From: Bacteroidales bacterium
GTDB taxonomy: Bacteria; Bacteroidota; Bacteroidia; Bacteroidales; DTGW01
Assembly (NCBI GenBank): GCA_049968755.1
Contig: JBMFQE010000005.1
Coordinates: 18,188-82,187, forward strand
Reading direction: 5' to 3'
DNA length: 64,000 nucleotides
A program made the position numbers and the translations under genes. The notes under the pieces are model-generated. The model was not told where the DNA came from. It ran no database searches and saw nothing but the letters and a program-made list of their open reading frames with translations. Of this stretch, positions 9,994 through 56,412 are shown piece after piece; position 1 is the stretch's first letter; every line of letters starts with the position of its first letter.

Positions 9994-10509
9994 TTATTGA
10001 GGTCTTTTTTTAATCACCATATTCAGGTTTCTATCGGTAGTGGCATTATCGCCAACGGCTCTATCAACGAGCAGTATGTTGATAATATTGTTGTTGCTGC
10101 TACGGGCTGAATCGAGGGTAAAACGGGTATTAAATCCGCATTCGGGCGAAATCATTTCGATTTTTCTTTGTGCAAACACATATAGGGTATCTACAGCTAT
10201 AGAGTCGAAGTAGAAGTAAAATACAGAGGTATCGCTTAGCTGCGAAAGGGGCAGTTGAAGCTGCTTAGCCGATGCCGAATCGTACAGCAATACGCCACTG
10301 GCGGTGGCAACACTTAAGTTACTCACTACAGTGTCGCTTAAGGTTCTTCTGGGGGTATATTGCATAAAATTAAGTTTTATGCTACGATTGGCAGTATACT
10401 TGCAGTCGGTGGTATCGGTGCAGCCTATCAGCATCCACGTTATAATCCCTGCCAGAATAGTATTACACCAATAATGCCTTTGTATCATATCGCTAATTTT
10501 AATATGCAC
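9994..10509 (-). CDS. hypothetical lipoprotein
   Basis: Lipobox-like WMLIGC near the N-terminus. No other motif recognised. It overlaps the upstream peptidase stop by 11 nt if the 10509 start is used. Confidence 0.6.
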   Translation of the reverse strand: MHIKISDMIQRHYWCNTILAGIITWMLIGCTDTTDCKYTANRSIKLNFMQYTPRRTLSDTVVSNLSVATASGVLLYDSASAKQLQLPLSQLSDTSVFYFYFDSIAVDTLYVFAQRKIEMISPECGFNTRFTLDSARSSNNNIINILLVDRAVGDNATTDRNLNMVIKKRPQ

Positions 10510-11812
10510 CTATTTCTGCCCTTATGCCCTGCCAGTTGGGTTTTTTAAAGATAATTTCGGTGGCCGATTTTTTGCGTGGAATAAAGCTGCCTGTTCGGAT
10601 AAAATGTATGGCCTGCCGCAAGCATAATTCCGATGTGTCGCCAAATGTGTGTGTAAGATCATCAAATTCGGCATAGTTGACCCCAATGCCTGCATATCCC
10701 GATGATTCCCCAAGGGCATTTTTCCATTCAAACATTACTGGTACGATGATGTAGTCTGAGTTTTTGATTTCAAGGGGAATCATGCCTACAGGTTTACCAT
10801 AGGTACGGGTACCGATAAGGTATGTTACAAGGTAGGGCTGGATCCCTTTTATCAGCGCTTCACTAGCCGAAGCCGTTTGTCCGGTGGTAATAAAGAACAC
10901 ACGCGTTAGCTGCTTGATGAGGCTGTTAGGTTTTTTGGCAAGGTAAGTAGTTTTCAGCGAGTCTTCAATGTATGGGTCGAGATCTGGATTGAAGGTTTCG
11001 CGGATAAACAGTTGCTGGTTGGCCTGTCGACCAATGATAAGATTGGCCAGATGATTGGCTGTGCTCAAACTACCCCCTGTATTGTATCGCAGATCCACCA
11101 CCAGTTCGTCGATGGAATAGTAATTAAAACTGCTAAAAACATCGTCGAGCTTGCCTTCGATATCGCTGCCCAGAAAGCTTTCCAGAGCCAGATAGCCTAT
11201 TTTTTTCCCTTCAATATCGATGACTGAGCTTGCCAGAATAGGGTTGATCGTAATACGCTCTTTTTGAAGGGAAATATTTTGTACCCGTCCCTGGTTGTCG
11301 ATAAATTCAAATTGATTGGTGACTATTGCAGTGCCATCGCCCACCAGTTCATTAAGCTGATCATAGCTGTAAACGTCGTTACCATTGACTTTCTTTAGTA
11401 TCCATCCACGCTGAATCCCTGCAGCAGAGGCCCAGGTGTTTTTAAACACATATCCTACCCGAATGTTGGCATATTCATCATAGGTAAACATAATGCCATG
11501 TCCGTAGAAGATGCCATTATTGAGGTTGTTAAATTCCTGTAATGTAACAATAAAACTCCAGCGATCGAGGGCAGTATATAGCAGATTGTAGAAGAATTGT
11601 TCAGGATTTACATCGGCTGTAGTGTCGACGCTTGAGGGTATTTTGTCATTCCACAGATATGCAGCTTGCATGTCGGCATATATTTCGCCTCGGATGCGGC
11701 TGGCGGTTATCTCTGTTGAGGTTTTGCCAGGATTTGTGTTATTGTTATCAGGCTCACAGGCTGAAATTAAAAGTAGTATACCCAGAAAGTATGGCCCATG
11801 TTTCAATTGCAT
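10499..11812 (-). CDS. S41 family (C-terminal processing type) serine peptidase, lipoprotein
   Basis: S41 core with TGQTASASEALIKG (nucleophile Ser region) and a PDZ-like middle part. The start was placed at MQLKHGPYFLGILLLISAC (lipoprotein signal). The ORF track extends to 11878. Confidence 0.8.
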   Translation of the reverse strand: MQLKHGPYFLGILLLISACEPDNNNTNPGKTSTEITASRIRGEIYADMQAAYLWNDKIPSSVDTTADVNPEQFFYNLLYTALDRWSFIVTLQEFNNLNNGIFYGHGIMFTYDEYANIRVGYVFKNTWASAAGIQRGWILKKVNGNDVYSYDQLNELVGDGTAIVTNQFEFIDNQGRVQNISLQKERITINPILASSVIDIEGKKIGYLALESFLGSDIEGKLDDVFSSFNYYSIDELVVDLRYNTGGSLSTANHLANLIIGRQANQQLFIRETFNPDLDPYIEDSLKTTYLAKKPNSLIKQLTRVFFITTGQTASASEALIKGIQPYLVTYLIGTRTYGKPVGMIPLEIKNSDYIIVPVMFEWKNALGESSGYAGIGVNYAEFDDLTHTFGDTSELCLRQAIHFIRTGSFIPRKKSATEIIFKKPNWQGIRAEIGAY

Positions 11813-11997
11813 AAGGTCCGTCTTTAAATTATTAATCAAAGAATTATAGCAGAGACACTTCACTGCAGGCTGATTCAAAGATAAAGTTTTTTTGAGTTTG
11901 CGTCAAATGCAAATCAAAATAATGTCCCCCCCCTATCGAGAAAATTTGGTGCTGTAAAAATTTGAAATTGAGTCCGCATTCGATTTTCCTTTCGAAC

Positions 11998-13332
11998 TTA
12001 TTCTTCCCAGCGTATTTCGAGGATGTGCTTTGTGTTGGACGAAATTTTATAACGTTCGTCAATTCGAAGTCCAATTACCCATACAATTTCCTCGCCGTTG
12101 GCCAGAATCCATATCCTTTCCTTCTGAATTCGCGATAGCTTAAGGTCGATGAAAAAGTCGCTGATTTTTTTGAAATGTTTCATGCCCAGAGGAATAAAAT
12201 AATCGCCTTTATTCCAGCGACGTAGAAGCAGGGGAAATACTAATTTATCGGCATCGAGGGCTGCAATGTGTTTTTCGGATTTAATCCTGTATGTCGAGCT
12301 TTCAAACATCTGGAAGGATAACCGAATGGGGGAGGTTAACTGTTGGGTATAGGATTCGATGTAATATAGCTGAGGTATATCTTTGTTTTCAAGGGTTTCG
12401 ATCAATAAAAATTCTCTATCCTTTATCAAGCGATGGGTAGGGGAGAAAAACTCTTTTCCGGGTTCAGCCTCCAATACCCGGAAGATATCTGCACACGTAT
12501 CGGGTGTAAATCTAAGAGGCAGCAGCAACTCAAGCAAAGCAAGGGGAGGGGAGGGCTGTTTTTTAATTTTTTCGATTGCAATAGCCATAACGCCATCGGG
12601 TAAGTGTTGGGGCAACTTTTTTATTTCGTGGTCGATATAGTGCTGGTATATTTTAGTTGCCTGCTGAATATTGGCTATGTTCCGCAGCATGGTATTACGG
12701 AAGGCAGGATTTAAGCGCTCAAGTGCTGGTATGACGTGATGCCGAATTTGGTTACGCAGGTATTTGTCGGTAAGATTGCTTGAATCGGTTCGAAAGGGGA
12801 TATTGTTTTCGGCACAATATTGTTCTATTTCGTTACGGAAGGCAAATAGCAGAGGACGAATGATTTTTCCATGGATCGGTTTTATGCCGGTCAAGCCCTT
12901 TAAACCTGTGCCCCTAATCAGGTTAACGAAGAAAGTTTCGATGCTGTCGTCGGCTTGGTGAGCAGTTGCTATATAAATAAAGCCATGAAGTTGACGGATG
13001 TTTTCGAAATAGCTATAACGTAGTTCGCGGGCAGCTTCCTGAATGGTTAACCCATGCTTTTGGGCATAGGCGAGGGTGTCAAATTTTTTTACAAAAATGG
13101 GTATTGATTCTTGTTCAGCCAGCTGGCTCACAAATGCTTCATCTTCATCCGATTCGGACCCGCGTAGCTGAAAGTTGCAATGTACAATTGCTATAGGCTG
13201 TCTCAGGGTATGCAACAGGTGTAACAGACACATTGAATCGGGTCCACCACTTACAGCAACAAGGATGTTATCGGTGGGAGAAACATGGCATACGTTGCGT
13301 AGGTATTGCTCAAATCGCTTTATCAGGCTCAT
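11998..13332 (-). CDS. tilS: tRNA(Ile)-lysidine synthase
   Basis: PP-loop SGGPDS at residues ~28-33 and a TilS C-terminal domain. The ATG overlaps the upstream TGA (ATGA). Confidence 0.93.
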   Translation of the reverse strand: MSLIKRFEQYLRNVCHVSPTDNILVAVSGGPDSMCLLHLLHTLRQPIAIVHCNFQLRGSESDEDEAFVSQLAEQESIPIFVKKFDTLAYAQKHGLTIQEAARELRYSYFENIRQLHGFIYIATAHQADDSIETFFVNLIRGTGLKGLTGIKPIHGKIIRPLLFAFRNEIEQYCAENNIPFRTDSSNLTDKYLRNQIRHHVIPALERLNPAFRNTMLRNIANIQQATKIYQHYIDHEIKKLPQHLPDGVMAIAIEKIKKQPSPPLALLELLLPLRFTPDTCADIFRVLEAEPGKEFFSPTHRLIKDREFLLIETLENKDIPQLYYIESYTQQLTSPIRLSFQMFESSTYRIKSEKHIAALDADKLVFPLLLRRWNKGDYFIPLGMKHFKKISDFFIDLKLSRIQKERIWILANGEEIVWVIGLRIDERYKISSNTKHILEIRWEE

Positions 13333-14441
13333 GGAGCAAATTGTTTGGTCGCATAAAAGATGTTGGTTGTATTTACCGCATCGGTGTCGCTATCGACTCG
13401 CAGAATCCAGTCACCATCAGTAGGCTGGGTACTGGAACCGTCGCCATTGCTGTCGCCTTTTAGACGGTCGTCGAAAAATGAGGTAAGCTGTACACCAGGT
13501 CCATACAGGTTAAGGATTGAATTCACGCCCGATGCAAGCCATAGGGTAGCGCCTCTCATAAATTTCAACGTCACATAATTGCCCAATGTAAAATATTCAT
13601 TTTCGGGAACCTGTAAGGTTGGACTTGCTATTACCAGTGCTACCTTGCTCTCGAGCCACTGGGGAGTATGCGATACCGGCTGGGTAGCATCAATAAAAAT
13701 TGCATTGTAACGATTGCGCTGTGAGGTATCTGAGGGGTTGTAAAAACGGTTGGTATTATCGATTGAAATAGAAGTATTGATAGCAAGGGGTATCTCATTA
13801 CCATAAAAAATGGATTGACTAATACGGGTCAGATAGTTTCCCTTTCGGGCATTTAGCGCACCTGCATAGTTTTCGGGCGTGCCACCTTTATTGAATGCAA
13901 AAGTACAGTAACGAATTTCGGCACTGCTGCTATCGAGGGTGAGTACCCCATTGCCGCCGTAAAGAAATAAAGTATAACCAAAAATGCAATGTTGCTTTGC
14001 TTTGATGATAATTCCTTCCCAGTCATTCGGGCGGGGCGTTGTGGCGTTTCCATCGCCATTATTGTCGCCGCCATGAAAATCGTCGTACAGCGAGGTGAAA
14101 ACAATGGGATAATTGGTGCTACCCTGGGCAGCTATCTGTCCGCTGTCGGCAATGGTCATGCTACGCCCATTGGCAGGGTCAAACTTGATGATGGTCCCCT
14201 TTTGTATGATCAAGGTGGCATTGACCATAAAATCAGCCTTGCGGATAATGTATATGTGCGTATTGTACCAGAAGGTAGCCGAATCGATATCGGCAGTAAC
14301 TTCCTTAACCGACATTTTTTCCTCCGGTTTATCTTCCTCGCAACCCCATGATAGCATTAAAGCGACTGCAGCTATAAGATAAATACTAAATGGTGTAACA
14401 AAACAGCCCCTGACAGGGGAAAATCGATGGCATCCTTTCAT
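13329..14441 (-). CDS. hypothetical lipoprotein with two homologous beta-rich modules, each ending in an Asp/Gly-rich NGDG loop
   Basis: Lipobox LSWGC. The internal repeat is IVFTSLYDDFHGGDNNGDGNATTPRPNDWEGI versus QLTSFFDDRLKGDSNGDGSSTQPTDGDWILRV. Confidence 0.7.
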   Translation of the reverse strand: MKGCHRFSPVRGCFVTPFSIYLIAAVALMLSWGCEEDKPEEKMSVKEVTADIDSATFWYNTHIYIIRKADFMVNATLIIQKGTIIKFDPANGRSMTIADSGQIAAQGSTNYPIVFTSLYDDFHGGDNNGDGNATTPRPNDWEGIIIKAKQHCIFGYTLFLYGGNGVLTLDSSSAEIRYCTFAFNKGGTPENYAGALNARKGNYLTRISQSIFYGNEIPLAINTSISIDNTNRFYNPSDTSQRNRYNAIFIDATQPVSHTPQWLESKVALVIASPTLQVPENEYFTLGNYVTLKFMRGATLWLASGVNSILNLYGPGVQLTSFFDDRLKGDSNGDGSSTQPTDGDWILRVDSDTDAVNTTNIFYATKQFAP

Positions 14442-14444
14442 TGA

Positions 14445-14894
14445 TCAATACTTTTTCAATCGGACATCGTAAATCCCCCCGCTGATTTGCCAGCAGGTGT
14501 TCTGACATCCAATTACTTTTTTAGCTTCAAACAGCCCACCGTCGACCGCCATAATGGTATCGTTGCCATTTTTGTAATGAGCAACAACGGAATAAAATTT
14601 ATCGGTAGCCACTTTGACGGTTACTTCTCCTTCGGTAAGGGTGTCGGCAAAGACGGTATCATCGGATTGATAAGGGTTGAATTTACTGGCATACACCTGT
14701 ACGGGTACTCGTTTATTCTCGTCGTTGATGGTGAGCTTAATTTTTATGCGGTCGGAGTCGGGATGCTCGGCTATGCAATTGATACAATAAAGATATTCAT
14801 CGGTCGTATTGCTGGTACAGCGAGTTAATCCGACGCCAATCGCAAATATTGCGATCATCAGAAACGATAGGCTGTGTTTTTTTGCTACTGCCAT
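14445..14894 (-). CDS. hypothetical small lipoprotein (Cys-containing, beta-rich)
   Basis: Signal peptide plus lipobox LTRC. It has CINC and CQNTC pairs. Its start overlaps the upstream gene end by 10 nt. Confidence 0.65.
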   Translation of the reverse strand: MAVAKKHSLSFLMIAIFAIGVGLTRCTSNTTDEYLYCINCIAEHPDSDRIKIKLTINDENKRVPVQVYASKFNPYQSDDTVFADTLTEGEVTVKVATDKFYSVVAHYKNGNDTIMAVDGGLFEAKKVIGCQNTCWQISGGIYDVRLKKY

Positions 14895-16327
14895 GGTTGA
14901 TAGCGTTTGTTGTCGAAATGGATTGATTTACCCAGATAGAGATTTACCCCAAAGTTGTAATGATGTGGAGAAACACCCCTAAATCCAAAGTCAAGATATT
15001 GATATGAGAAATAAAGCTTGACATTTCGGAAAATGTAGTAGTATCCTCCGTGGATAGCCCAGGTATTCTCTGTTGATGTGGGGAAAGATGACCCCCGGTA
15101 GCTGTGGTGCGAGGATACCCAACGAGCTCCGATAAATATACCCTGCAACGTGGAATTTTGTTTGTAGCGGAGCAGAAATTTCTTGTCCAATCCGGCGTAC
15201 CATAGGTAACGGCTTTCCCAGAACTGGTAGTAGTGACCAGATTGACCGGTTGGTACCAATATGCGAGTGGGGGTTAATCGTGCGAGGAATCCCGCAGATA
15301 GCTCAACATCGTAGCGAAAGTCGCGCAGGCCAACATTGGCACCCATCATGATGTGCTGAAAATTACCCAAAAATTCAGGCCCAATGCTCATTTGTCTGAA
15401 ATCGGGCCATATGCTTTGTCGGGCGCCGTTTGAGGTCAAAATTTCGCGAAGGAAAATATCGCTGTTGAAATAATTGGCAATGGTAAGTGGGGTCTCTGTT
15501 TTTCGGATTTTTAAATTTACATCGGCGCCTTTATCAACGAGATACTGGATGAGCTTTTCATCCTGCTTTTCGAGGGCTATGGTCAGAGCCGAATGTTTTT
15601 TTCGCGAAATGTGGTTAATGTTGGCGCCGTATTCGAGCAGCAAATCCATCATCGGGTAATTAGCGTTTGCAACAGCAACCAGGAATGGTGTAACTCCATG
15701 AATATCGGGCATATCGGGCGATATTCCCCGATTAAGTATATAATGGACAAAGTAGGGTCGGTTATGCATTACAGCTACCATCAGTGGGGTAATGCCAGAA
15801 GTATCGGCCTGCGTAAGATTGGCTCCCCAGCTAAGTAGCTTTTGAAAAACTACGGTGTCGTTCTGGGCTATCGCATACATTATGGGGGTGCGTCCCTGTT
15901 CATCTCCCGCATTAACGCTGGCACCCATGTTTACAAGCATTTCGGCAAGGATTGGCCGTTGAGCTTTTATGGCTACTATCAAGGGCGTGGGGCCGAATGA
16001 GGGCCGAAAATTTACATCAGCACCCCGAGCAATTAGATAGTTACATATGTTAGGCTGTCCCCCTTGAACCGCATATATGAGTGGCGTTATACTTTCATCG
16101 ATTACTGTATTAGGATTTATCCCTTTGTCGAGCAGTTGCTGAATCATCGGTAAATCGCCTTTTAATGAGGCGATAATCAAATTGTATTCATCGTCATCGG
16201 GTTCGTATGCCAGCGTATCGCCACGTTGAAAAGCATACCCACTCCCGTAAAAAAGCGCAAGCCATACAAATAAACAAATTGATACTTTTCGGGCAAACAT
16301 TAGGGTTGTTTTGTTACAAATGTACAT
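14885..16327 (-). CDS. ankyrin-repeat protein fused to a C-terminal outer-membrane beta-barrel-like domain
   Basis: Signal peptide (probable start at 16300, MFARKVSICLFVWLALFYGSGYA). Eight ANK repeats of ~33 aa (e.g. TPLIYAVQGGQPNICNYLIARGADVN, RTPIMYAIAQNDTVVFQKLLSWGANL). The last ~170 aa show alternating aromatic/Gly-rich beta-strand patterns (YYYIFRNVKLYFSYQYLDFGF). Confidence 0.8.
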   Translation of the reverse strand: MYICNKTTLMFARKVSICLFVWLALFYGSGYAFQRGDTLAYEPDDDEYNLIIASLKGDLPMIQQLLDKGINPNTVIDESITPLIYAVQGGQPNICNYLIARGADVNFRPSFGPTPLIVAIKAQRPILAEMLVNMGASVNAGDEQGRTPIMYAIAQNDTVVFQKLLSWGANLTQADTSGITPLMVAVMHNRPYFVHYILNRGISPDMPDIHGVTPFLVAVANANYPMMDLLLEYGANINHISRKKHSALTIALEKQDEKLIQYLVDKGADVNLKIRKTETPLTIANYFNSDIFLREILTSNGARQSIWPDFRQMSIGPEFLGNFQHIMMGANVGLRDFRYDVELSAGFLARLTPTRILVPTGQSGHYYQFWESRYLWYAGLDKKFLLRYKQNSTLQGIFIGARWVSSHHSYRGSSFPTSTENTWAIHGGYYYIFRNVKLYFSYQYLDFGFRGVSPHHYNFGVNLYLGKSIHFDNKRYQPWQ

Positions 16328-21644: not shown

Positions 21645-23741
21645 TTAAACCCTCATTCCGATCACAAGGATATCGTCAATCTGGTCGAGTTCGCCACGCC
21701 ATTCGGTGATGGTAACGTCGAGGATCTGTTTTTGTTCCTCCATGGCTTTTTCGTGAATATCAATCAGTAGCTGTTTAAACCGCTTGGCCATAAATTTTTT
21801 ACCATTTTCGCCTCCAAATTGGTCGACATAACCATCGGAGAAAATATACAATGTGTCGCCTGGTTGTAGGGGTATTTCGGTATTGGTAAAGCTGGTGGTT
21901 TGTTTGTCGTGGAAACCAACCGGCATGCGGTCAGCAGGACCTTCTATCAGCTCATTGCCTCTTACCAGGTATAGGGGGTTAAATGCACCGGCAAACTGTA
22001 CTCGTTTCAGGTCGCTGTCGAATACGCATAAGGCCATATCCATACCATCTTTGGTTTCTTCCACCGAGCCGCTCTGATGCAACGACTTGATAACCAGCGA
22101 GCGAAGTTCGTCGAGTATCTGGGCAGCAGAAGTAACCTCCGACTTTGATGTAATCTCGTTGAGCAGTGCCATACCCAACATACTCATAAAGGCTCCCGGT
22201 ACTCCATGACCCGTACAATCGGCTGCCGTAACAATTATTTTGCTGTCCTTAGCACTAATCCAGTAAAAGTCGCCGCTAACAATATCTCGGGGTTTATACA
22301 GGATGAAGTATTGAATGTTGTAGTCCTCAAGAACTTTAGGAGAGGGCAGTACCGCTCTTTGAATTCGGCTTGCATAGTGAATACTATCGGTAATCTCTTT
22401 TTTCTGCTGGAAAATCTGGTCGCGTTGTTTCTTTATCTGTTCGTTTTGTTCGGCTAAGAGTATATTTGCCTTTTTCTTTTCTGCATACTGCTTGAAAATA
22501 ATGATGGAGAAGCCCATAACCATAAGGGCTATGAGCCCAACTGCCAATAGAAATATGCTTTTGCGTTTCGATTCGGCATCTTTCTTTGCCAGCTCAGCTT
22601 TCTGAAGTTTTATTTCATTTTCTTTCTTTTCATTTTCGTATCGAGCTTCATTTTCCTGCATCTGGCGCAGGTAATCTTCACTCAGTACCGAATCTTTCAA
22701 ATTCGAATATATCTTGTAGTATTCATAGGCTTGTTTGTAATTACCGATAGCAGAGTATACGCTGGCCATGTTTTCGTAGCTATCAAGCAATTCTTTTTTA
22801 GCATTTAGCTCTTTAAAAAGGGCAACACTTTGTTTATAGTATTGCAGGGCTGTACCATACGAGCCAGCTTTCTGATATATTTCACCCAGTTGGCGTAGAG
22901 CCTGCGCAATTAATAATTTCTCGCCCAGTGATTTATATACGTTCAGCGATTCTTCCACGTATCGAAGTGCCCGGTTGTAATCGCCCTGCTCGGCGTAGAA
23001 GGTTCCCATTTCACCATTTACCTGTGCTAATCCAGGTTTAAACCCAATTTTGGTAAAAATCTGCTGGCTTTTGCGGAAATACTCGAGTGCTTTCTCGTTT
23101 GCATTTATTTTTTTGTATGCTACCCCTGTATTCATGTACAGATAACCTACATAATTTAATTTGCCTAAACGCATGAATATATCAGTAGCTTTTTCGTAAA
23201 ATTCAATAGCTTTTGTATATAACCCGTATGAGAAATATACGTTAGCCAGGTTGTTAAGCGTTCGACCTATCAATACGCTGTCTTTGTTGGCTTCTACATA
23301 TTCGAGGTTGCGCTGAAAATACTCTATTGCCTTCAAATAGTCGCCTTGAGACTTATATAATACTCCAATGTCGTTGAGTATGTCTACCTGCATTCGACTG
23401 TTAACCTGCTTTGCCAGTTCAAGCGCTTTTAAATAGCATTGAAGCGCCTTTTCAATAACCCCCTTGCGATAATAGGCTATCCCTTGCCAGTATAAAATAC
23501 GAAATATTTCTTGAGGATAATTTACATTTTCGCCAATTTCAATGGCTTTCTGGCAATAGTGCAGGGCACTGTCCCATTCCAGCTGATTAAGATAGGTGTT
23601 GGCAATGTTACCCAGTATTTTTATTTTAATAGTGTCTTCATGAGTACTTTTCAACACCTGCTGTAAACTATCAATTTTGTTTCCCAGCAAAAAAGGTGAG
23701 ATAAAGCACATAACAACGGTTATAAACAGCTTATTTTTCAT
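21645..23741 (-). CDS. transmembrane TPR-repeat sensor fused to a PP2C/SpoIIE-type protein phosphatase
   Basis: Signal peptide, ~9-10 TPR units, a coiled coil, one TM helix (SIFLLAVGLIALMVMGFSIIIF), then a SpoIIE domain (SGDFYW, DCTGHGVPGAFMSM, SDGYVDQFG). Confidence 0.85.
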   Translation of the reverse strand: MKNKLFITVVMCFISPFLLGNKIDSLQQVLKSTHEDTIKIKILGNIANTYLNQLEWDSALHYCQKAIEIGENVNYPQEIFRILYWQGIAYYRKGVIEKALQCYLKALELAKQVNSRMQVDILNDIGVLYKSQGDYLKAIEYFQRNLEYVEANKDSVLIGRTLNNLANVYFSYGLYTKAIEFYEKATDIFMRLGKLNYVGYLYMNTGVAYKKINANEKALEYFRKSQQIFTKIGFKPGLAQVNGEMGTFYAEQGDYNRALRYVEESLNVYKSLGEKLLIAQALRQLGEIYQKAGSYGTALQYYKQSVALFKELNAKKELLDSYENMASVYSAIGNYKQAYEYYKIYSNLKDSVLSEDYLRQMQENEARYENEKKENEIKLQKAELAKKDAESKRKSIFLLAVGLIALMVMGFSIIIFKQYAEKKKANILLAEQNEQIKKQRDQIFQQKKEITDSIHYASRIQRAVLPSPKVLEDYNIQYFILYKPRDIVSGDFYWISAKDSKIIVTAADCTGHGVPGAFMSMLGMALLNEITSKSEVTSAAQILDELRSLVIKSLHQSGSVEETKDGMDMALCVFDSDLKRVQFAGAFNPLYLVRGNELIEGPADRMPVGFHDKQTTSFTNTEIPLQPGDTLYIFSDGYVDQFGGENGKKFMAKRFKQLLIDIHEKAMEEQKQILDVTITEWRGELDQIDDILVIGMRV

Positions 23742-40930: not shown

Positions 40931-41064
40931 CTTTTTATTTGCTTTTCTTCTGCTTTTTCTTAATCTTTACATTCTTCTCAGTAAGAGGATTTCAACAATT
41001 AAAGGAAAGAAAGCATTTAATTAAGCAATTCAACAAAGATAACTTGTGCAATAAACACTCACCT

Positions 41065-41167
41065 ATGAAATACCCATGTTCCTGCGAACGCAAACACAAT
41101 AGAAAAATTGCGAACATGGGTGTTCCATCATACCTTATAAAAATTAATTTTATTATGATGAAAAAAA
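41065..41167 (+). repeat. copy B of the duplicated leader cassette (hairpin 41069-41124) ending in the cotH-like start codon
   Basis: See copy A. Same arms, same A/T-rich linker and the same ATGATGAAAAAA start context. Confidence 0.9.
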
Positions 41168-43293
41168 TTGTATTGCTCTTTTGCATGTTGGGGTCAATAG
41201 GAGCTGGTGCCCAGGTTCCGTTTATTTCGCTTAACTCGGATACTACTCGTACAAAACGGGGATTTTCGTACTGGCTGGGTAATCAGGCACCTGCTGAAGA
41301 TTGGAAAAATCCAGCCTTTGATGACTCGCTATGGACAAAAGTAAACGTTCCTGCAGTGATAGGGTATGGCTGGCCGGTTATGCCTAAGGATTGTACTATT
41401 GTCATATCAAAAACCCCCAGCCTTTTTTTGCGCATCAAATTCAATGTTGATAACGTGTGGGATTGGGGTGATTTAAGTTTTTGGTCCGATTACGACGATG
41501 GATATATTGCATACTTGAACGGGCAGGAGATAATTCGGGTGAACCTGGGCAAGCAGGGAAGTGCGGTTGCATTCAACCAGCCCACCGACCGGTCGCACGA
41601 ATCGCATGTTTATAGACGATACGATGCACCCGTGGATGCATATTATATCGATTCTACGACGGTTCGATCGCTTATCCACCCGGGTGAAAATGTTTTTGCT
41701 ATTGAGGTGCATAACGATAGTGTTGCCAATGATTTATCTTTTGTCTGCGCGGTTTATAATTTGAAGAATAATGGTTGGTATAATATTTACAATCCGGTTT
41801 TTCGGTATTACCGTCAGGTGCCGCTCGATAGCTCAAAATTTCCTATTGTAGCTATCGAAACAGATGAAATGGGCATTCCCTATCTGCATACCCGGGTTCG
41901 GGCCCGGATGAAAATTATCGATAAGCCTGGTATAAAGCGACCTACCGATTGGCCTGTATACGATGGTTATATTTCCATTGAACGTAAAGGCGAGTCGTCG
42001 GCCTGGTTCCCGAAAATGTCGTTCAATGTTGAGACGCAAAACCCCGATGGTACCAATAACAACATTGCCCTACTGGGCATGCCTGCCGAAAATGATTGGG
42101 TACTTTTCAGCAGTTTTGCTGATAAAAGCCTGATAAAAACAGAACTGGTTTACATGCTGGGTCGTAAAATGGGCCATTATGAACCTCGTACGCAATATTG
42201 CGAGCTGATATACAATGGTGAGTACATGGGGTTGTATTATTTCATGGAAAAAATAAAAAGGGATAAAAACCGTGTAAACGTGGCCAAACGCGACTCTATT
42301 TTTCCCGAAAATGGAGGTTACGTTTTTAAATACGATAAGCCTAATAGAAAGGTAGTTCAATTCATTTACCCCGATGACGATGAAATTACAGAGGCTGAGA
42401 AAAATTATTTGATCAATTTTATTAAAAGTTTTGAAGCAACGCTAAAATCTCCCAGGTTTCTCGATCCGGTAGAGGGTTACCGACGTTACGTCAATCCCTA
42501 TTCCCTCATCGACTATGTTATCATTAACGAGCTTACGAAAAATTGTGACGCATATCTTTATAGCACCTATTTTTACAAGGATAGTCGTGGGGTAATAAAC
42601 TATGGACCCTTGTGGGATTACGATCTGGCATTTGGTGGTGCCAGCTGGCAGGAGGGTACGCTCACGTACAAATGGCAGTATGAGTTTAATACCGACCTTA
42701 ACATAAAGCTGATGCTGCGCGATACGGTATTAAAAAACAGGCTTGCAGCACGTTGGTGGGAGTTACGAGGAAGTTTTCTTTCCAACGATAGCCTGTTCTA
42801 CTACATAGATTCGCTATATCAGCATACCCACGATTCTCGGTTGCTCAACTATAGCGTGTGGCCTATAGAGGATAAGTACCTGTTTGGTCCCGATCATTAC
42901 GTGGCCTCTGCCGATGAGGAGGTTGCCTTCATCAAGGATTGGTTGCAAAAGCGACTTGCCTGGATTGATGCCAATATCGATAAAATATATTATCCGCTCG
43001 ACGTGAATTCGCCTACTTTTGCGTATAGCAAAACGGCCATTGAAGTGTATCCCAATCCGTTTATCGATCGACTGAGGGTGCGGCTACTGGGTGAAGCGGG
43101 GAACTATACTTTCATGCTTCAAACGCTCAATGGGCAAAGGGTGTACCAGCAAACTTTCTATGCTGCTGATGGTGAGATAAATACTTTTGAAATACCAGGT
43201 GTAGCCATTAATTCGCTCGGACGGGGCATGTACATACTAACGGTTTCGGTTAATGGTGCAGTAGTGCAGGCCGAGAAGGTTATCAAGCAATAG
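41155..43293 (+). CDS. secreted CotH-family (atypical kinase fold) protein with T9SS C-terminal sorting domain
   Basis: Signal peptide MMKKIVLLFCMLGSIGAGAQ. The central region has CotH-like segments (YCELIYNGEYMGLYYFMEKIKRD, WDYDLAFG). The last 85 aa are a Por-secretion tail. The ORF-track start at 40939 reads through the upstream repeat. Confidence 0.8.
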   Translation: MMKKIVLLFCMLGSIGAGAQVPFISLNSDTTRTKRGFSYWLGNQAPAEDWKNPAFDDSLWTKVNVPAVIGYGWPVMPKDCTIVISKTPSLFLRIKFNVDNVWDWGDLSFWSDYDDGYIAYLNGQEIIRVNLGKQGSAVAFNQPTDRSHESHVYRRYDAPVDAYYIDSTTVRSLIHPGENVFAIEVHNDSVANDLSFVCAVYNLKNNGWYNIYNPVFRYYRQVPLDSSKFPIVAIETDEMGIPYLHTRVRARMKIIDKPGIKRPTDWPVYDGYISIERKGESSAWFPKMSFNVETQNPDGTNNNIALLGMPAENDWVLFSSFADKSLIKTELVYMLGRKMGHYEPRTQYCELIYNGEYMGLYYFMEKIKRDKNRVNVAKRDSIFPENGGYVFKYDKPNRKVVQFIYPDDDEITEAEKNYLINFIKSFEATLKSPRFLDPVEGYRRYVNPYSLIDYVIINELTKNCDAYLYSTYFYKDSRGVINYGPLWDYDLAFGGASWQEGTLTYKWQYEFNTDLNIKLMLRDTVLKNRLAARWWELRGSFLSNDSLFYYIDSLYQHTHDSRLLNYSVWPIEDKYLFGPDHYVASADEEVAFIKDWLQKRLAWIDANIDKIYYPLDVNSPTFAYSKTAIEVYPNPFIDRLRVRLLGEAGNYTFMLQTLNGQRVYQQTFYAADGEINTFEIPGVAINSLGRGMYILTVSVNGAVVQAEKVIKQ
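43036..43290 (+). other. T9SS type A C-terminal sorting domain of the CotH-like protein
   Basis: VYPNPF...beta-sandwich pattern...GMYILTV...V(I/V)K at the extreme C-terminus, typical of Por_Secre_tail domains. Confidence 0.8.
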
Positions 43294-50574: not shown

Positions 50575-52773
50575 TTATTTTTTAATACTCCATCCGCCTT
50601 TAAGACCAAAGATAAACCAGGTGAGAGCAATTGCCCCTACCCCAAAAATGGTATCGCCAATGATGCGTAACCATTTAAATACGTTGATGTAGGGTTGTTG
50701 CATGAATTCGGCTGAACGGGCATACCACAATCCTTCTTTAACGCTTGCCACTGTTTGAGCCAGTCCAATTGGAAGTAAGCTAAGTAGCACCATAGCAATA
50801 AGCCCAATGTTGATGCTCCAGAAAGCAAATTTGAGCCATTTATCGTTCCATTCGGCCTGTAAATCCATATCGCGCAGCACAAAGAGCATAAGTCCAATAC
50901 CCAACATTCCGTATACCCCAAAGAGAGCTGTGTGTCCGTGAACGGGTGTGGTATTTAGTCCCTGCATATAGTATAGGGCAATGGGAGGGTTGATGAGAAA
51001 CCCAAAAATACCTGCACCCACCAGGTTCCAGAAGGCAACGGCCACGAAACAGTAGATGGGCCATTTGTATTTTCGCACCCAGTCGGTGCTCTGGGTCAGT
51101 TTCAGGTTATCGTAGGCCTCAAATCCCATAAGCGTAAGGGGTACTACCTCCAGCGCACTGAATGTTGCCCCAAGTGCCATTATAGAAGTTGGCGTACCTG
51201 TAAAATATAGGTGATGGAAAGTTCCAATTATCCCGCCCGATAGAAAGATGATAGTAGAAAAGAGAACGGCAGTAGTTGCGGTGGTCACTTTTATCAGTCC
51301 CAATCGCACAAACAGAAAAGCAGTAACTACAGCAGCGAATACTTCAAAGAATCCTTCCACCCACAGGTGAACTACCCACCAACGCCAATATTCTACAATA
51401 GCCAGATGAGTTTGTCTTCCCCACATGAGTCCAGCTCCGTAAAAAGCTGCAATGGCAATAGCCGAGATAAGAAATAATACTAAAAGGTTTTTGTTCTCCG
51501 TTTTTTGCTTGATAGCTGGCCATATGGCACGTCCCATTAATATAAGCCAAACCAACAGCCCCACGAATAGTAGCAGCTGCCAGAAACGTCCCAGGTCGAT
51601 GTATTCGTAGCCCTGATGGCCCAACCAAAAGTTTTCGATCAACCCCAGCTTTTGCATAACCCCCAGCCACTGACCGACAAGTGATCCCACTACGACAATG
51701 AGAAGAGCAATAAACAGGAAGTTTACGCCCAGCCGTTGGTACTTTGGTTCGTGACCCGAGATTACCGGTGCATAGTAGAGACCTGTTGCCAGCCACGAGG
51801 TTGCTATCCAGAAGATAGCCAGCTGAACATGCCAGGTTCGTGAGATAGAGTAGGGGAGTATATTGGCCAGGGGTATTCCATAGAGTCCCTGCCCCTCTAC
51901 ACCGTAGTGGGCAGTGATTACGCCCATGACAACCTGTACCAGGATAAGCAGGGTAACTATCCAGAAATATTTGAGTGTTGCCTTTTGTGAGGGAGTATTA
52001 GCCGTTGTTCCCAGCGGAAATTCTGCAGCAATACCCTCAAATGGTTCATCGCGTTTTCGAGCGTAATACCACACCATAAGGCCAATGCCTGCAATAAGCA
52101 TAATGACGCTAAACCCTGTCCAAAGTAGCAGTGCACCCGAGGGTGCATTCCCTACCAGTGCCTCGGCTGGCCAATTGTTGGTATAACTTATGTCTTGCCC
52201 TGGTCGATTGGTTACACATGCCCAGGCTGTCCAGAAAAAGAATGCGGTGAGTTTGCGAATTTTCTCTTTGTCGGTCAGCGTATTGGTTTTTATTGCATAT
52301 TGTTCTCTTAACCGGGCAAAAGCAGGATCGTCTGTAAACAGTTTTTCGTAATATTGGATGTTATTGGCAATTGCCTCCGCCCTGATGTCTGATATTACAA
52401 TGCTTTTTTGTGTAGCATCGTAGGTGTTCTTTCGAATGTCTTTTTGTAATAGCGCCTTTAAATATGCCTGCTTTTCTGTGGGAAGACTGTCGAACGAGGT
52501 TTGATATTCGCTCCGTGCCAGCTTTTCCAACATGAATACTGCTTCCCGATGAAGCCATTCAGCACTCCAATCAGGTGCCACGTACGAGCCGTGTCCCCAG
52601 ATGGTTCCCAGTTCATGCCCACCAATGCTTTGCCATACATTCTGCCCTTCACGGATGTCGGTACCTGTAAACAATACGGTTCCATCTGCTTTGACTACTT
52701 GTTCAGGTATCGGCGGTGCTTGATGATAAATTTCTCGCCCAAAAATGAGCAACACTGCAAAAGATACCGTCAA
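50575..52773 (-). CDS. norB: quinol-dependent nitric oxide reductase (qNOR; NorB/NorZ, heme-copper oxidase family); N-terminus interrupted by an in-frame TAA
   Basis: An N-terminal ~250-aa qNOR-specific periplasmic extension (GHELGTIWGHGSYVAPDWSAEWLH), then 12+ TM helices with His ligands (HHLYFTG, HGHTALFGVYGM). See the finding on 52789-52812. Confidence 0.9.
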   Translation of the reverse strand: MTVSFAVLLIFGREIYHQAPPIPEQVVKADGTVLFTGTDIREGQNVWQSIGGHELGTIWGHGSYVAPDWSAEWLHREAVFMLEKLARSEYQTSFDSLPTEKQAYLKALLQKDIRKNTYDATQKSIVISDIRAEAIANNIQYYEKLFTDDPAFARLREQYAIKTNTLTDKEKIRKLTAFFFWTAWACVTNRPGQDISYTNNWPAEALVGNAPSGALLLWTGFSVIMLIAGIGLMVWYYARKRDEPFEGIAAEFPLGTTANTPSQKATLKYFWIVTLLILVQVVMGVITAHYGVEGQGLYGIPLANILPYSISRTWHVQLAIFWIATSWLATGLYYAPVISGHEPKYQRLGVNFLFIALLIVVVGSLVGQWLGVMQKLGLIENFWLGHQGYEYIDLGRFWQLLLFVGLLVWLILMGRAIWPAIKQKTENKNLLVLFLISAIAIAAFYGAGLMWGRQTHLAIVEYWRWWVVHLWVEGFFEVFAAVVTAFLFVRLGLIKVTTATTAVLFSTIIFLSGGIIGTFHHLYFTGTPTSIMALGATFSALEVVPLTLMGFEAYDNLKLTQSTDWVRKYKWPIYCFVAVAFWNLVGAGIFGFLINPPIALYYMQGLNTTPVHGHTALFGVYGMLGIGLMLFVLRDMDLQAEWNDKWLKFAFWSINIGLIAMVLLSLLPIGLAQTVASVKEGLWYARSAEFMQQPYINVFKWLRIIGDTIFGVGAIALTWFIFGLKGGWSIKK

Positions 52774-53972: not shown

Positions 53973-54199
53973 TTATTTGAAAACGGATGAAATGGCAAGT
54001 GATGATGTTGAGATTGTGTTTACTGTCTGCTCAAATTTTACATGAATATTGTTTTTGCAACGAATGCCAAAATTGTTTCTTTTCTTCAATAATTTTCTCT
54101 TCTGATAGTTTCAATTTATTGGCTTATCAGAGGATCAACCAGTTAAAATTGGGTTTTAGGCAAGTCCAATAAAAATTTATGTAACATAAAAAAAATGTT

Positions 54200-54207
54200 T
54201 AATTTTG
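54200..54207 (+). promoter_or_regulatory. candidate -7 promoter box (TAATTTTG) driving the riboswitch-btuB transcript
   Basis: Matches TAnnTTTG immediately upstream of riboswitch helix P1. Confidence 0.45.
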
Positions 54208-54392
54208 CGCTGTATTGGTTCCCGCAAGGGATTAAAAGGGAATCCGGTGTGAAACCGGAGCTGTCCCCGCAGCTGTAATCCTGTTCCTGTGTATCAGGAA
54301 TGTGCTTTTAACACCTCTGCCACTGTCCCGCAAGTAAGGGATGGGAAGGCGTTAAAAGTCAGGAAAGCCAGAAGACCTGCCAGTACAGCATT
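54205..54392 (+). promoter_or_regulatory. cobalamin (B12) riboswitch
   Basis: Conserved core GGTTCCCGCAAGGGATTAAAAGGGAATCCGGTGTGAAACCGGAGCTGTCCCCGCAGCTGTAA and B12-box region GCCACTGTCCCGCAAGTAAGGGATGGGAAGGCG. P1 pairs CTGTATTGGT (54210-54219) with GCCAGTACAG (54379-54388). It lies upstream of a TonB-dependent receptor. Confidence 0.92.
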
Positions 54393-54420
54393 TCGTAGCT
54401 TTCGGGTGAAAAGCAAAGAA

Positions 54421-54498: not shown

Positions 54499-56412
54499 AT
54501 GCGGTATTTTTATTTGGTTATATTATTGTTCAATCTATCTGGCATAACAGCTCTGTCTGCTGGTGCCGACAGCATTATTATCAATATTGATGCGGTGGAG
54601 GTATCGCGTCCCCGCTACGAGGTATTGTCGATAGGGGCTACGGTTCAGTCTGTCGATACTTTTTTACACAAAATAAGCCGTAATCTTTCTCTACCCGATT
54701 TGCTAAGTTTTGCGGGATTGAATATAAACAACTATGGCCCGGGTGGACTATCAACCCTGGCTGTCAGGGGGATGTCGGCTTCGCATACTGCCATTGTATG
54801 GGACGAGGTGAATCTTCAGAGTCCTATGAATGGTCAGGTAAATCTGTCGGTAATACCTTCCTGTTTTTTCGACCGTGCCAGCATACAGTATGGTGGTTCA
54901 GGGGTTAACTATGGAAGTGGTTCTATGACCGGCATTGTACATTTGGGCACTGCCAATATTTTTCAACAATCAAACCAGCTATGGATTTCGCCAGCTTTGG
55001 GTAGCTTTGGAAATAGAAGTATGGGTATGGGATATAAGCTGGGTAATCATCGGCTTGCCACTTCACTCAAAGCCTTTCTTCAGCAATCCGATAACGATTT
55101 TCCCTATAAAAACACGGCCGACTTCTACCAGCGTACTGTCCGGCAAACCAATGCTGGTTTAAAACAATATGGTATTTTTCCCCAGCTGGCGGTACAGACC
55201 TCTGAACGTTCGTTGCTGAAAGCCTCGTGCTGGATACAGCAATACAACAAGGATATTCAAACCATGATGACCAGCACTACGCCTAATCAATCGCACCAGG
55301 ACGATAGGAACATCTGGTTAAATGTGCAGTGGAAATATGTCGACTCAGCCTATGTGCTCTCGCTGAGAAATGCCTACCTGTACAATCAGGTACTTTATAC
55401 CGATGCTCAGCAAACGACAACCGATAACCATTCGCAATCGTACATTACCGAGCTGGAATCGAGGGTGTGGGTTCGCAAGAACCAATGGTTGCAGGCTGGG
55501 CTTAATTATACTTATGATAAAGCTTTTTCGGGTGGATACAGTAAAAGCCCAACCCGCCAGCGGACATCCCTGTTTATGCAGTACCGCATCGAAAATATTG
55601 TCCAAAGGTTAAATATGGTGGTGGGTTGCCGGCAGGAATATGTGTCTTCTTTTCTTCCATTGGTATACAGTTCGGGACTTGAATATAAACTCAATTCTCA
55701 TTGGCGGGTAACGACCAATATTTCCAGAAATTACCGAATCCCTACCCTTAATGATCTTTACTGGAAGGAGGATGCGTTTGCACGCGGTAACCCGTCCCTC
55801 AAACCCGAGTGGGGCTGGTCAGCTGAGGTGGGTCTGCATCAACAGCAAATCTGGGGTAATATGCGGGTTGAAGCCTCGCAAATGTATTTCTATAACCACA
55901 TTTACAACTGGATTGTATGGCAACCTGATGCCATAACCGGCAAGTGGCAACCTGTAAATAAGTTGCAGGGAAAATCGGAGGGACTCGATTTAAGGTTTAA
56001 AACCTCTTACGAATCTGTCAGATTGCGCTGGATGGTAGCAGCCTCTTACCAATACACCTATGCACGTATGATGCAATCCAATGGGCAGTGGAGCAACTAT
56101 CCCCCCGATTATGTGCCAGCTCATCGGGCAAGCATCAACCAGATGTTTTCCTACAAAAATATTTCGGTGGGTTATATCCACAATTACACAGGCCCAAGAT
56201 ATTCGCTGGGTAGCCGTTTACCATCCTATCAGGTTGCCGACCTGTTCTGGCAATATTTGCTTTATAAAAATCAACTTAGGGTAACCCTTCAGTTTCGTAT
56301 CAACAATGTGTGGAATGAATTTTACCAGGTGCGACAGTATTATGCTATGCCGCTTCGCAACTATTTGTTCATCCTGATACTTGAATTATCAGCCAAACCA
56401 AATATTTATTAA
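54499..56412 (+). CDS. btuB: TonB-dependent outer-membrane receptor, BtuB-like (vitamin B12/corrinoid uptake)
   Basis: Signal peptide, plug domain (LAVRGMSASHTAIVWDEVNLQSPMNG) and a 22-strand barrel-length C-terminus. It is controlled by the upstream cobalamin riboswitch. Confidence 0.85.
   Translation: MRYFYLVILLFNLSGITALSAGADSIIINIDAVEVSRPRYEVLSIGATVQSVDTFLHKISRNLSLPDLLSFAGLNINNYGPGGLSTLAVRGMSASHTAIVWDEVNLQSPMNGQVNLSVIPSCFFDRASIQYGGSGVNYGSGSMTGIVHLGTANIFQQSNQLWISPALGSFGNRSMGMGYKLGNHRLATSLKAFLQQSDNDFPYKNTADFYQRTVRQTNAGLKQYGIFPQLAVQTSERSLLKASCWIQQYNKDIQTMMTSTTPNQSHQDDRNIWLNVQWKYVDSAYVLSLRNAYLYNQVLYTDAQQTTTDNHSQSYITELESRVWVRKNQWLQAGLNYTYDKAFSGGYSKSPTRQRTSLFMQYRIENIVQRLNMVVGCRQEYVSSFLPLVYSSGLEYKLNSHWRVTTNISRNYRIPTLNDLYWKEDAFARGNPSLKPEWGWSAEVGLHQQQIWGNMRVEASQMYFYNHIYNWIVWQPDAITGKWQPVNKLQGKSEGLDLRFKTSYESVRLRWMVAASYQYTYARMMQSNGQWSNYPPDYVPAHRASINQMFSYKNISVGYIHNYTGPRYSLGSRLPSYQVADLFWQYLLYKNQLRVTLQFRINNVWNEFYQVRQYYAMPLRNYLFILILELSAKPNIY

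Follow-up and report, generated by a model that had tools for sequence, protein, structure and literature searches.

Within the window analysed here, a stretch of 64,000 nucleotides (nt) from a Bacteroidales bacterium (contig JBMFQE010000005.1, positions 18,188 to 82,187), two overlapping minus-strand genes were found to encode an ankyrin repeat protein with a predicted C-terminal outer-membrane (OM) β-barrel, hereafter the ankyrin-barrel protein, and a small putative lipoprotein (Table 1). Computational analysis established the domain identities, the predicted folds, a fixed architecture and an obligate gene pairing, and led to the proposal, held with a probability of about 0.68, that the two genes make up an outer-membrane module, in which a barrel-anchored periplasmic ankyrin docking platform works with its lipoprotein partner. 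To our knowledge, bacterial envelopes rarely contain ankyrin repeats, and the known examples are soluble. Both of the component folds are known, and it is their combination, together with the lipoprotein partner, that is probably previously undescribed. Full-text literature searches brought up no description of an ankyrin/outer-membrane-barrel fusion, and ankyrin is not mentioned in a preprint on the β-barrel assembly machinery (BAM) of Bacteroidota. An earlier reading of the same DNA, made from the letters and open reading frames alone (the sequence-only reading), had named no characterised example of this architecture, and Pfam, NCBIfam and PDB sequence searches, as well as the full-text literature searches, gave no such family.

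Predicted Fold of the C-Terminal Domain

In the full-length AlphaFold2 (AF2) model, residues 310–466 of the protein form an all-β domain. Because a fold search with this full-length model gave ankyrin and designed ankyrin repeat protein (DARPin) matches alone, the C-terminal 181 residues were modelled separately from 30 family sequences, resulting in a model with a predicted local distance difference test score (pLDDT) of 89.6 and a predicted template modelling score (pTM) of 0.80. Foldseek comparison of the barrel model with PDB revealed 17 matches at E-values ≤ 1e-3, all of which (17/17) were integral outer-membrane barrels, nearly all of them small and eight-stranded, with no soluble folds at this threshold. 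These included the OmpA transmembrane domain (1bxw, E-value, 5.2e-6; 1qjp, target-normalised TM-score (TMt), 0.64), the N-terminal domain of OprF (TMt, 0.62), NspA (TMt, 0.58), OmpX, Ail, PagP and OmpW, as well as an engineered minimal OmpA-type barrel and a porin of the Legionella type IV secretion system. Barrels with 10 to 16 strands and autotransporter domains were met only at E-values of about 1e-2 and with low TM-scores. Based on DSSP, the model contains nine β segments, of which those at residues 341–350 and 354–359 were read as one kinked strand, and the domain was taken to be eight-stranded because its best structural matches are eight-stranded. With eight strands, the modelled turns at the barrel end that holds the two chain termini are 2–4 residues long, and the loops at the opposite end comprise 4–10 residues, an asymmetry that in the model matches the usual pattern of periplasmic turns and external loops. 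Judging by its predicted structure, with TMt values of 0.53–0.64 to OmpA, OprF-N and NspA, the domain would belong to the class of small eight-stranded OM barrels represented by OmpA, OmpX and OmpW.

Column statistics for 182 barrels, which share a median identity of only about 28%, demonstrated that residues alternate strictly, with a period of two, in every strand. Of the two faces of the strands, one is 85–99% hydrophobic, with I, L, V and F replacing each other freely, whereas the other is rich in Gly, Ser and Asn and bears near-invariant charged or polar residues, namely D/E336 (98%), R350 (96%), Q368 (97%), E371 (96%), R373 (94%) and K382 (90%; numbering of the window protein). In addition, Tyr, Phe and Trp are enriched at the strand ends. 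A conserved polar interior combined with a variable greasy exterior is the signature of a membrane barrel and the reverse of that of a soluble one; together with the putative signal peptide, it supports the same class of small OM barrels as the fold comparison does. The last barrel strand (N-F-G-V-N-L-Y-L) resembles a β-signal, yet it is followed by a tail of 14 residues.

At the level of sequence families, the barrel domain gave nothing significant against Pfam, NCBIfam or PDB sequences, and no OMP-family match was found for the window protein even at E-values ≤ 1. Likewise, a profile search of PDB with the barrel family returned 0 matches, and hidden Markov models (HMMs) did not assign the domain to the OmpA_membrane, OMP_b-brl, OMP_b-brl_2 or OmpW families. 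When 30 family members were scanned against Pfam at E-values ≤ 10, one OMP_b-brl match (E-value, 0.018) and one BBP2_2 match (E-value, 0.032) were obtained. This lack of a sequence match to any OM protein family, the atypical C-terminus, and the moderate TM-scores with rmsd values of 6–8 Å could be accounted for if the domain were a soluble periplasmic β-barrel or β-sandwich (lipocalin- or YceI-like) that resembles OM proteins by accident. Such an explanation is hardly credible, since no soluble fold is present among the Foldseek matches at E-values ≤ 1e-3, and a soluble barrel would be expected to conserve its hydrophobic core, whereas here it is the polar, Gly-containing face that is conserved and the hydrophobic face that drifts. 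The aromatic residues gathered at the strand ends and the two weak, isolated OMP_b-brl and BBP2_2 matches (2/30 members) speak against it as well.

That the C-terminal ~170 residues look like an OM β-barrel with an alternating aromatic/Gly pattern had been noticed in the sequence-only reading. The present results bear this out: the region is modelled by AF2 with pLDDT values of 89.6–90.8, all 17 Foldseek matches are OM barrels, and the peptide stretches quoted at the time coincide with strands 2–3, 6–7 and 8 of the predicted barrel. The alternation is not a chance pattern, as it is kept in the 182 homologues in spite of their divergence. A soluble or non-barrel C-terminal region, which had been named as the outcome that would refute the idea, did not emerge from AF2 modelling, Foldseek or conservation analysis.

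Ankyrin Array, Export Signal and Predicted Topology

Bioinformatics analysis revealed that the N-terminal part of the protein belongs to the ankyrin repeat superfamily (Pfam Ank clan). The best Pfam match, Ank_2 (E-value, 1.2e-59; 199 bits versus a cut-off of 27.3), extends over about residues 50–290, Ank follows with an E-value of 2.8e-36, and Ank, Ank_3, Ank_4 and Ank_5 each score above their cut-offs. The NCBIfam matches were merely sub-threshold and partial, all to ankyrin-containing models, including those for Legionella Ank effectors, which scored far below cut-off. In the full-length AF2 model, which was built from 38 family sequences (mean pLDDT, 90.8; pTM, 0.79), the region is folded into eight helix pairs with pLDDT values above 90. 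The N-terminal cap repeat begins at residue 46, and repeats 2–8 follow at an exact spacing of 33 residues, with helices starting at residues 82, 115, 148, 181, 214, 247 and 280. Foldseek matches of the full-length model in PDB were restricted to DARPins and ankyrin-R/B (E-values of about 1e-17). Thus, the eight repeats of ~33 residues that the sequence-only reading had placed at 15413–16195 are confirmed by Ank_2 and by the AF2 helix pairs at nt 15428–16192. The precomputed domain annotation PF28177, carried by the identical protein P0001, is taken to refer to the ankyrin region and not to the barrel, because it is found in many unrelated ankyrin proteins that have no barrel. Positions of the ankyrin binding groove are more variable than those of the framework (mean entropy, 3.14 versus 2.21 bits), which is compatible with a co-evolving partner.

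The N-terminus has the layout of a Sec-type signal peptide, with a basic n-region (R13, K14), a 13-residue hydrophobic h-region (residues 15–27) and a putative signal peptidase I (SPase I) site at A32|F33 with G-Y-A at −3/−1; a lipobox Cys is absent. The layout is conserved among ankyrin-barrel homologues, so that the signal peptide proposed in the sequence-only reading is upheld, and AF2 shows a single helix at residues 7–28 followed by a disordered segment (residues 30–37, pLDDT < 50). A D-T/S motif, the Asp of which is present in 80% of 143 aligned full-length sequences, was noted just past the predicted cleavage site, inside the segment that is disordered in the AF2 model.

The ankyrin array is connected to the barrel by a linker of 9–10 residues, in which Gly, Ala and Pro are conserved in 81%, 73% and 91% of the 182 members, respectively. 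On the other side of the barrel domain, Trp479 of the C-terminal tail is conserved in 95% of these members. The pLDDT of the tail is ~85 in the full-length model versus 51–57 in the barrel-only model, and, since the tail is thus better ordered when the ankyrin domain is present, it presumably packs against that domain. The first periplasmic turn carries a D/E-x-K/R-Y motif conserved at 87–98%. Together with the linker and the tail, this turn may fasten the solenoid to the base of the barrel. All known bacterial outer-membrane barrels with an even number of strands have both termini on the periplasmic side. Therefore, by analogy, the N-terminal ankyrin array is expected to reside in the periplasm rather than on the cell surface.

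The order of signal peptide, passenger-like domain and C-terminal barrel is also that of classical type Va autotransporters, and bacterial ankyrin proteins are often effectors, as the distant NCBIfam matches to Legionella Ank effectors recall. It might accordingly be imagined that the ankyrin passenger crosses the OM with help from the barrel and is displayed on the surface, for example for adhesion or for interaction with a host or prey. However, the barrel matches eight-stranded anchors, with the autotransporters EstA and EspP found only at E-values of about 1e-2 (query-normalised TM-scores, TMq, 0.26–0.33), its lumen-facing positions are filled with conserved polar and charged residues, and the 9–10-residue linker contains, in the AF2 models, no helical segment able to span a pore. 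Moreover, the rapid and stable folding of ankyrin repeats is a hindrance to threading. Surface display of this kind is therefore considered very improbable. The 12-stranded barrel and helical linker of type Va autotransporters were not found, nor was any match to the Autotransporter model of Pfam. Cargo of the type IX secretion system was discarded likewise, as there was no Por_Secre_tail or TIGR match and the domain is a 157-residue barrel and not a sandwich of ~80 residues. A PorP/SprF-type reading was considered and rejected.

Distribution and Architecture of the Family

When 50% identity clusters were searched exhaustively by HMMER for the C-terminal domain (E-values ≤ 1e-3), 196 representatives were obtained, nearly all of which are 450–500 amino acids (aa) long and match at the C-terminus. 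A word-indexed search with the barrel alone returned no match despite the presence of the identical full-length protein in the database, which reflects the sensitivity limit of that search and not an absence of relatives. In a census with home-built HMMs, the barrel was detected in 184 fetched proteins, and ankyrin repeats were found in every one of the 150 among them that reach 420 aa or more, the shorter ones being mostly fragments. The family defined by the barrel domain thus amounts to ~200 clusters, and its architecture is fixed. All of the named members come from metagenome-assembled genomes (MAGs) of Bacteroidales, Bacteroidota or Chlorobi, and a single-protein scan of reference genomes yielded one close relative (locus L005, 78% identity).

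Two proteins of 193–197 aa, P0185 (L014, 1821–2414) and P0234, are stand-alone barrels without ankyrin repeats, each of which has a signal peptide of its own. The existence of such proteins indicates that the barrel is an autonomous exported domain. The gene for P0185 adjoins that of an unrelated Eco57I-type methylase on a short contig.

The Partner Lipoprotein Gene

The start of the lipoprotein gene overlaps the stop of the ankyrin-barrel gene, and a hairpin scan found no terminator between the two. In six divergent homologous loci (25–40% identity), the ankyrin-barrel gene is likewise followed by an overlapping or abutting same-strand gene for a protein of 139–155 aa without a Pfam match, while the other neighbours differ. 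Alignment demonstrated that these small downstream proteins are homologous to each other. The reverse search, starting from the small protein, revealed an overlapping upstream gene for an ankyrin protein of 458–481 aa in all four members located on long contigs, and these ankyrin proteins all carry the barrel domain (E-values, 1e-43 to 1e-47). In total, the pairing was observed in 11 of 11 loci covering 25–80% identity, tested from both directions, and the lipoprotein gene is an obligate partner of the ankyrin-barrel gene.

The partner family comprises 239 clusters of proteins of ~130–163 aa, all annotated as 'hypothetical protein' and all from Bacteroidales or Bacteroidota MAGs. Searches of Pfam, NCBIfam and PDB sequences with the partner gave nothing significant, and no enzyme signature was recognised. 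The lipobox Cys, typically in the context F-[TSM]-[AGS]-C, is present in 127 of 127 sequences. Four further Cys form a CxxC...CxxxC arrangement, of which C40, C130 and C134 are invariant (127/127) and C37 is found in 122 of 127 sequences; as judged from its spacing, the arrangement would be suited to a metal site or to a pair of disulfides. In 109 of 126 partners, at least two acidic residues occupy positions +2 to +6 after the lipobox Cys (consensus C-E-P/T-E-D-W). According to the literature, acidic signals for lipoprotein export in Bacteroidetes include C-X-K-(D/E)2-X, SDDDD and SDDFE (PMC5080379). The acidic stretch of the partners resembles these signals, although the window copy (C-TSNTTDEY) is weak, with only a distal D-E, and the strict K-(D/E)2 or Q-A-(D/E)2 motif was found in 0 of 126 partners.

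Periplasmic ankyrin immunity proteins exist (PMC4686830), and Imm-ank is known from polymorphic toxin systems (PMC3482391). By comparison with Bd3460 or Imm-ank, the ankyrin array could therefore be pictured as an OM-tethered immunity protein that neutralises a toxin or lytic enzyme acting in the periplasm, and its variable groove would suit an arms race. The gene neighbourhoods make this an improbable explanation. In none of the 11 loci is the pair flanked by a gene for a toxin, a peptidoglycan hydrolase, the type VI secretion system or an Rhs protein. Housekeeping genes surround it, and these change from clade to clade, examples being those for TilS (window, L001, L008), the SUI1-like factor (L007, L010–L013), acetyl-CoA carboxylase and Tex. 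As the TilS or SUI1 synteny is kept within clades, vertical inheritance is indicated, which argues against immunity. Furthermore, the window holds only a single copy of the pair, and the sole constant neighbour of the ankyrin-barrel gene is the small lipoprotein without an enzyme signature.

Comparison with Known Systems

The combination of a small eight-stranded OM anchor barrel with a folded periplasmic domain is shared with OmpA and OprF. RcsF, an OM lipoprotein, has four conserved Cys. The periplasmic domain of OmpA binds RcsF (PMC7553776). This small OM lipoprotein bound by OmpA parallels the obligate four-Cys partner described here. In contrast to OmpA and OprF, the presumed periplasmic domain is N-terminal, so that the domain order is reversed, an ankyrin solenoid takes the place of the peptidoglycan-binding OmpA_C domain, no sequence homology to OmpA_membrane was detected, and the partner gene, other than rcsF, lies right next to the barrel gene and overlaps it.

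Stable complexes of surface lipoproteins with barrels are a hallmark of Bacteroidota; among them is the pair Bt1926/Bt1927, in which Bt1926, a predicted eight-stranded barrel, putatively anchors the S-layer surface lipoprotein Bt1927 encoded next to it or takes part in its secretion (bioRxiv 10.1101/2025.01.31.636011). As in that pair, which stems from the same phylum, a small barrel is encoded beside a lipoprotein gene, and adjacent barrel and lipoprotein genes are present in all 11 loci. Most partners also have an acidic stretch right after the lipidated Cys that resembles an export signal. Unlike the present module, the known complexes have no periplasmic ankyrin array; the partner described here is very small (~125 aa when mature) and Cys-rich, and the strict export motif is missing from all 126 partners and weak in the window copy.

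An N-terminal periplasmic α-solenoid, a C-terminal OM barrel and a neighbouring lipoprotein gene are also combined in Slam of Neisseria. The Slam barrel is 14-stranded. Slam is proteobacterial and thought to act in translocation, whereas the protein described here is predicted to have eight strands, a filled lumen and ankyrin instead of tetratricopeptide (TPR) repeats, and it is non-homologous. Membership in the Slam/DUF560 family was rejected, since there was no DUF560 or TPR match and the predicted barrel is eight-stranded; the adjacency of a lipoprotein gene, which is seen in about 52% of Slam loci (PMC5449769), is the only shared feature.

The use of ankyrin repeats as protein binders in the periplasm is illustrated by Bd3460 of Bdellovibrio, a periplasmic ankyrin protein that neutralises DD-endopeptidases (PMC4686830). 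Proteins of the Bd3460 type differ from the ankyrin-barrel protein in being soluble, in having fewer repeats and no membrane anchor, and in being encoded beside the gene of the enzyme they inhibit, a kind of neighbour that was found in 0 of 11 loci here.

Proposed Model

From the fold predictions, the conservation patterns and the gene pairing we infer membrane insertion, a periplasmic orientation, complex formation and a scaffolding role. The product of the first gene would be exported by Sec, and its C-terminal ~157 residues would be inserted in the outer membrane as an eight-stranded, OmpA-like anchor barrel. The solenoid of eight ankyrin repeats would then be suspended on the periplasmic side of the outer membrane, where it would offer a platform for protein binding; the linker, the first periplasmic turn and the Trp-containing C-terminal tail probably keep it rigidly attached to the base of the barrel. 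The second gene would be translationally coupled to the first and give rise to a small lipoprotein that is stabilised by disulfides or a metal and anchored in the same membrane; the two gene products probably work together in a complex. Within such a complex, the periplasmic ankyrin array may bind the lipoprotein, in a way similar to RcsF and the periplasmic domain of OmpA; alternatively, the lipoprotein may be flipped to the surface and rest on the barrel's conserved outer loops, similar to the situation in the Bacteroidota surface-lipoprotein/barrel complexes. The sequence-only reading had pictured an ankyrin array whose own barrel would place an interaction scaffold at the envelope. The models support the OM barrel anchor, but they point to a scaffold on the periplasmic side and not on the cell surface, and the picture has to be widened to a fixed-architecture family of ~200 clusters and a lipoprotein partner gene that had been missed.

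Several observations weigh against this model. All of the structural evidence is prediction, DSSP counts nine β segments instead of eight, and TM-scores to known barrels are just ~0.5–0.64, with no detectable sequence homology to them. The classical terminal aromatic residue is missing, the conserved Trp being penultimate and located after the 14-residue tail. The ankyrin groove is poorly conserved and thus gives no sign of one invariant ligand. As the strict published export motif occurs in none of the 126 partners and the window copy is weak, the lipoprotein may lie on either side of the membrane. Finally, every named member of the family comes from an uncultured genome.

A more elaborate arrangement, which is regarded as unlikely, would be a trans-outer-membrane device specific to uncultured Bacteroidota, in which a small Cys-rich lipoprotein, surface-exposed or flipped to the surface, is coupled via the eight-stranded barrel to a rigid periplasmic ankyrin platform that recruits a periplasmic or inner-membrane partner. 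It might sense envelope stress or surface contact, following the logic by which RcsF works with OmpA and IgaA; otherwise it might handle lipoproteins in the manner of Slam, dedicated to its substrate.

If the model of a barrel-anchored periplasmic docking platform is correct, an OM-anchored ankyrin solenoid with an obligate lipoprotein would represent a new way to build a fixed docking site under the outer membrane. The analysis also defines two protein families, that of the barrel with ~200 clusters and that of the lipoprotein with ~240, neither of which is so far covered by Pfam or NCBIfam. How lipoproteins pair with barrels and by which route they reach the surface are open questions in Bacteroidota, and a compact, strictly co-inherited barrel-lipoprotein pair would offer a tractable model for studying such pairing. 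Because the named members all come from uncultured genomes, functional work would need heterologous expression.

Gene Call and Genomic Neighbourhood

The coordinates of the gene pair, its features and the neighbouring elements are listed in Table 1. NCBI entry MGC8824344.1, titled 'MAG: ankyrin repeat domain-containing protein [Bacteroidales bacterium]', is the same protein started at Met10 (471 aa, 100% identical). The Bacteroidota −7 promoter motif is TAnnTTTG, to which the sequence upstream of the first ATG offers no more than a near match, TCAGTTTG; a scan for σ70 promoters is uninformative for Bacteroidota.

Table 1. Positions of the ankyrin-barrel/lipoprotein gene pair, its features and neighbouring elements in the window.
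Feature	Position	Strand	Size or residues	Basis or remark
Ankyrin-barrel ORF (open reading frame)	14885..16327	minus	480 aa	
Putative Sec-type (SPase I) signal peptide	16232..16327	minus	aa 1-32	read from sequence
Alternative start, Met10	16300	minus		start used by NCBI
D-T/S motif	16216-16221	minus	aa 37-38	
Eight ankyrin repeats	15428..16192	minus	aa 46-300	Pfam, AF2, Foldseek; predicted periplasmic
Linker, N-G-A-R-Q-S-I-W-P	15401..15427	minus	aa 301-309	conserved; ankyrin to barrel
Predicted eight-stranded OmpA-like OM β-barrel	14930..15400	minus	aa 310-466	AF2, Foldseek, conservation; no Pfam model
C-terminal tail, K-x-I-x-W-x motif	14888..14929	minus	aa 467-480	Trp479 conserved
Stop codon of ankyrin-barrel gene	14885-14887	minus		
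Partner lipoprotein gene	14445..14894	minus	149 aa	start overlaps ankyrin-barrel stop by 10 nt (ATGGCAGTAG)
ORF downstream of the pair	13329-14441	minus	370 aa	weak match to Pfam Beta_helix
tilS, S41 peptidase and DUF6452 protein genes	9994-13332	minus		tightly packed
TPR-SpoIIE phosphatase	21645-23741	minus	698 aa	
CotH kinase-family protein	40939-43293	plus	784 aa	
NorB-like nitric oxide reductase	50575-52773	minus	732 aa	fused cytochrome c-like domain
Cobalamin riboswitch	54199-54398	plus		Rfam RF00174, 112 bits
TonB-dependent receptor and DUF5074 protein	54499-56412, 56433-57494	plus		downstream of the riboswitch

The ORF for a 370-aa protein begins 4 nt past the lipoprotein gene and overlaps tilS, the gene for tRNA-Ile lysidine synthetase, by 4 nt. 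Its product has a lipobox-like SWGC, after which an acidic EEDKPEE stretch resembles the signals for lipoprotein export, and it weakly matches a right-handed β-helix (Pfam Beta_helix; E-value, 0.014). A homologue with 43% identity is located at the same position in L001, while more distant loci have none, and the ORF was therefore regarded as a clade-specific neighbour outside of the core pair. A hairpin at 14407–14419 was discounted as a terminator, as it lies inside this ORF and hairpins are found at chance frequency (5 versus 4.8 expected). Beyond the ORF, the genes for TilS, an S41 peptidase and a DUF6452 protein continue the minus-strand string, and tilS is also located downstream of the pair in L001 and L008.

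In five loci belonging to one clade (L007, L010, L011, L012 and L013), the ankyrin-barrel gene is directly preceded by a gene for a 114-aa SUI1/YciH-like translation factor. In four of these loci the latter runs into the start of the ankyrin-barrel gene, and in L012 the two are 55 nt apart. A C39-peptidase ATP-binding cassette (ABC) transporter is encoded near the pair in the same clade.

No tRNA genes were found across the whole 64-kb window. Further away from the pair, the window codes for a TPR-SpoIIE phosphatase, a CotH kinase-family protein and a NorB-like nitric oxide reductase to which a cytochrome c-like domain is fused. In addition, a cobalamin riboswitch is followed on the same strand by genes for a TonB-dependent receptor and a DUF5074 protein, and this stretch looks like a typical vitamin B12 uptake locus.

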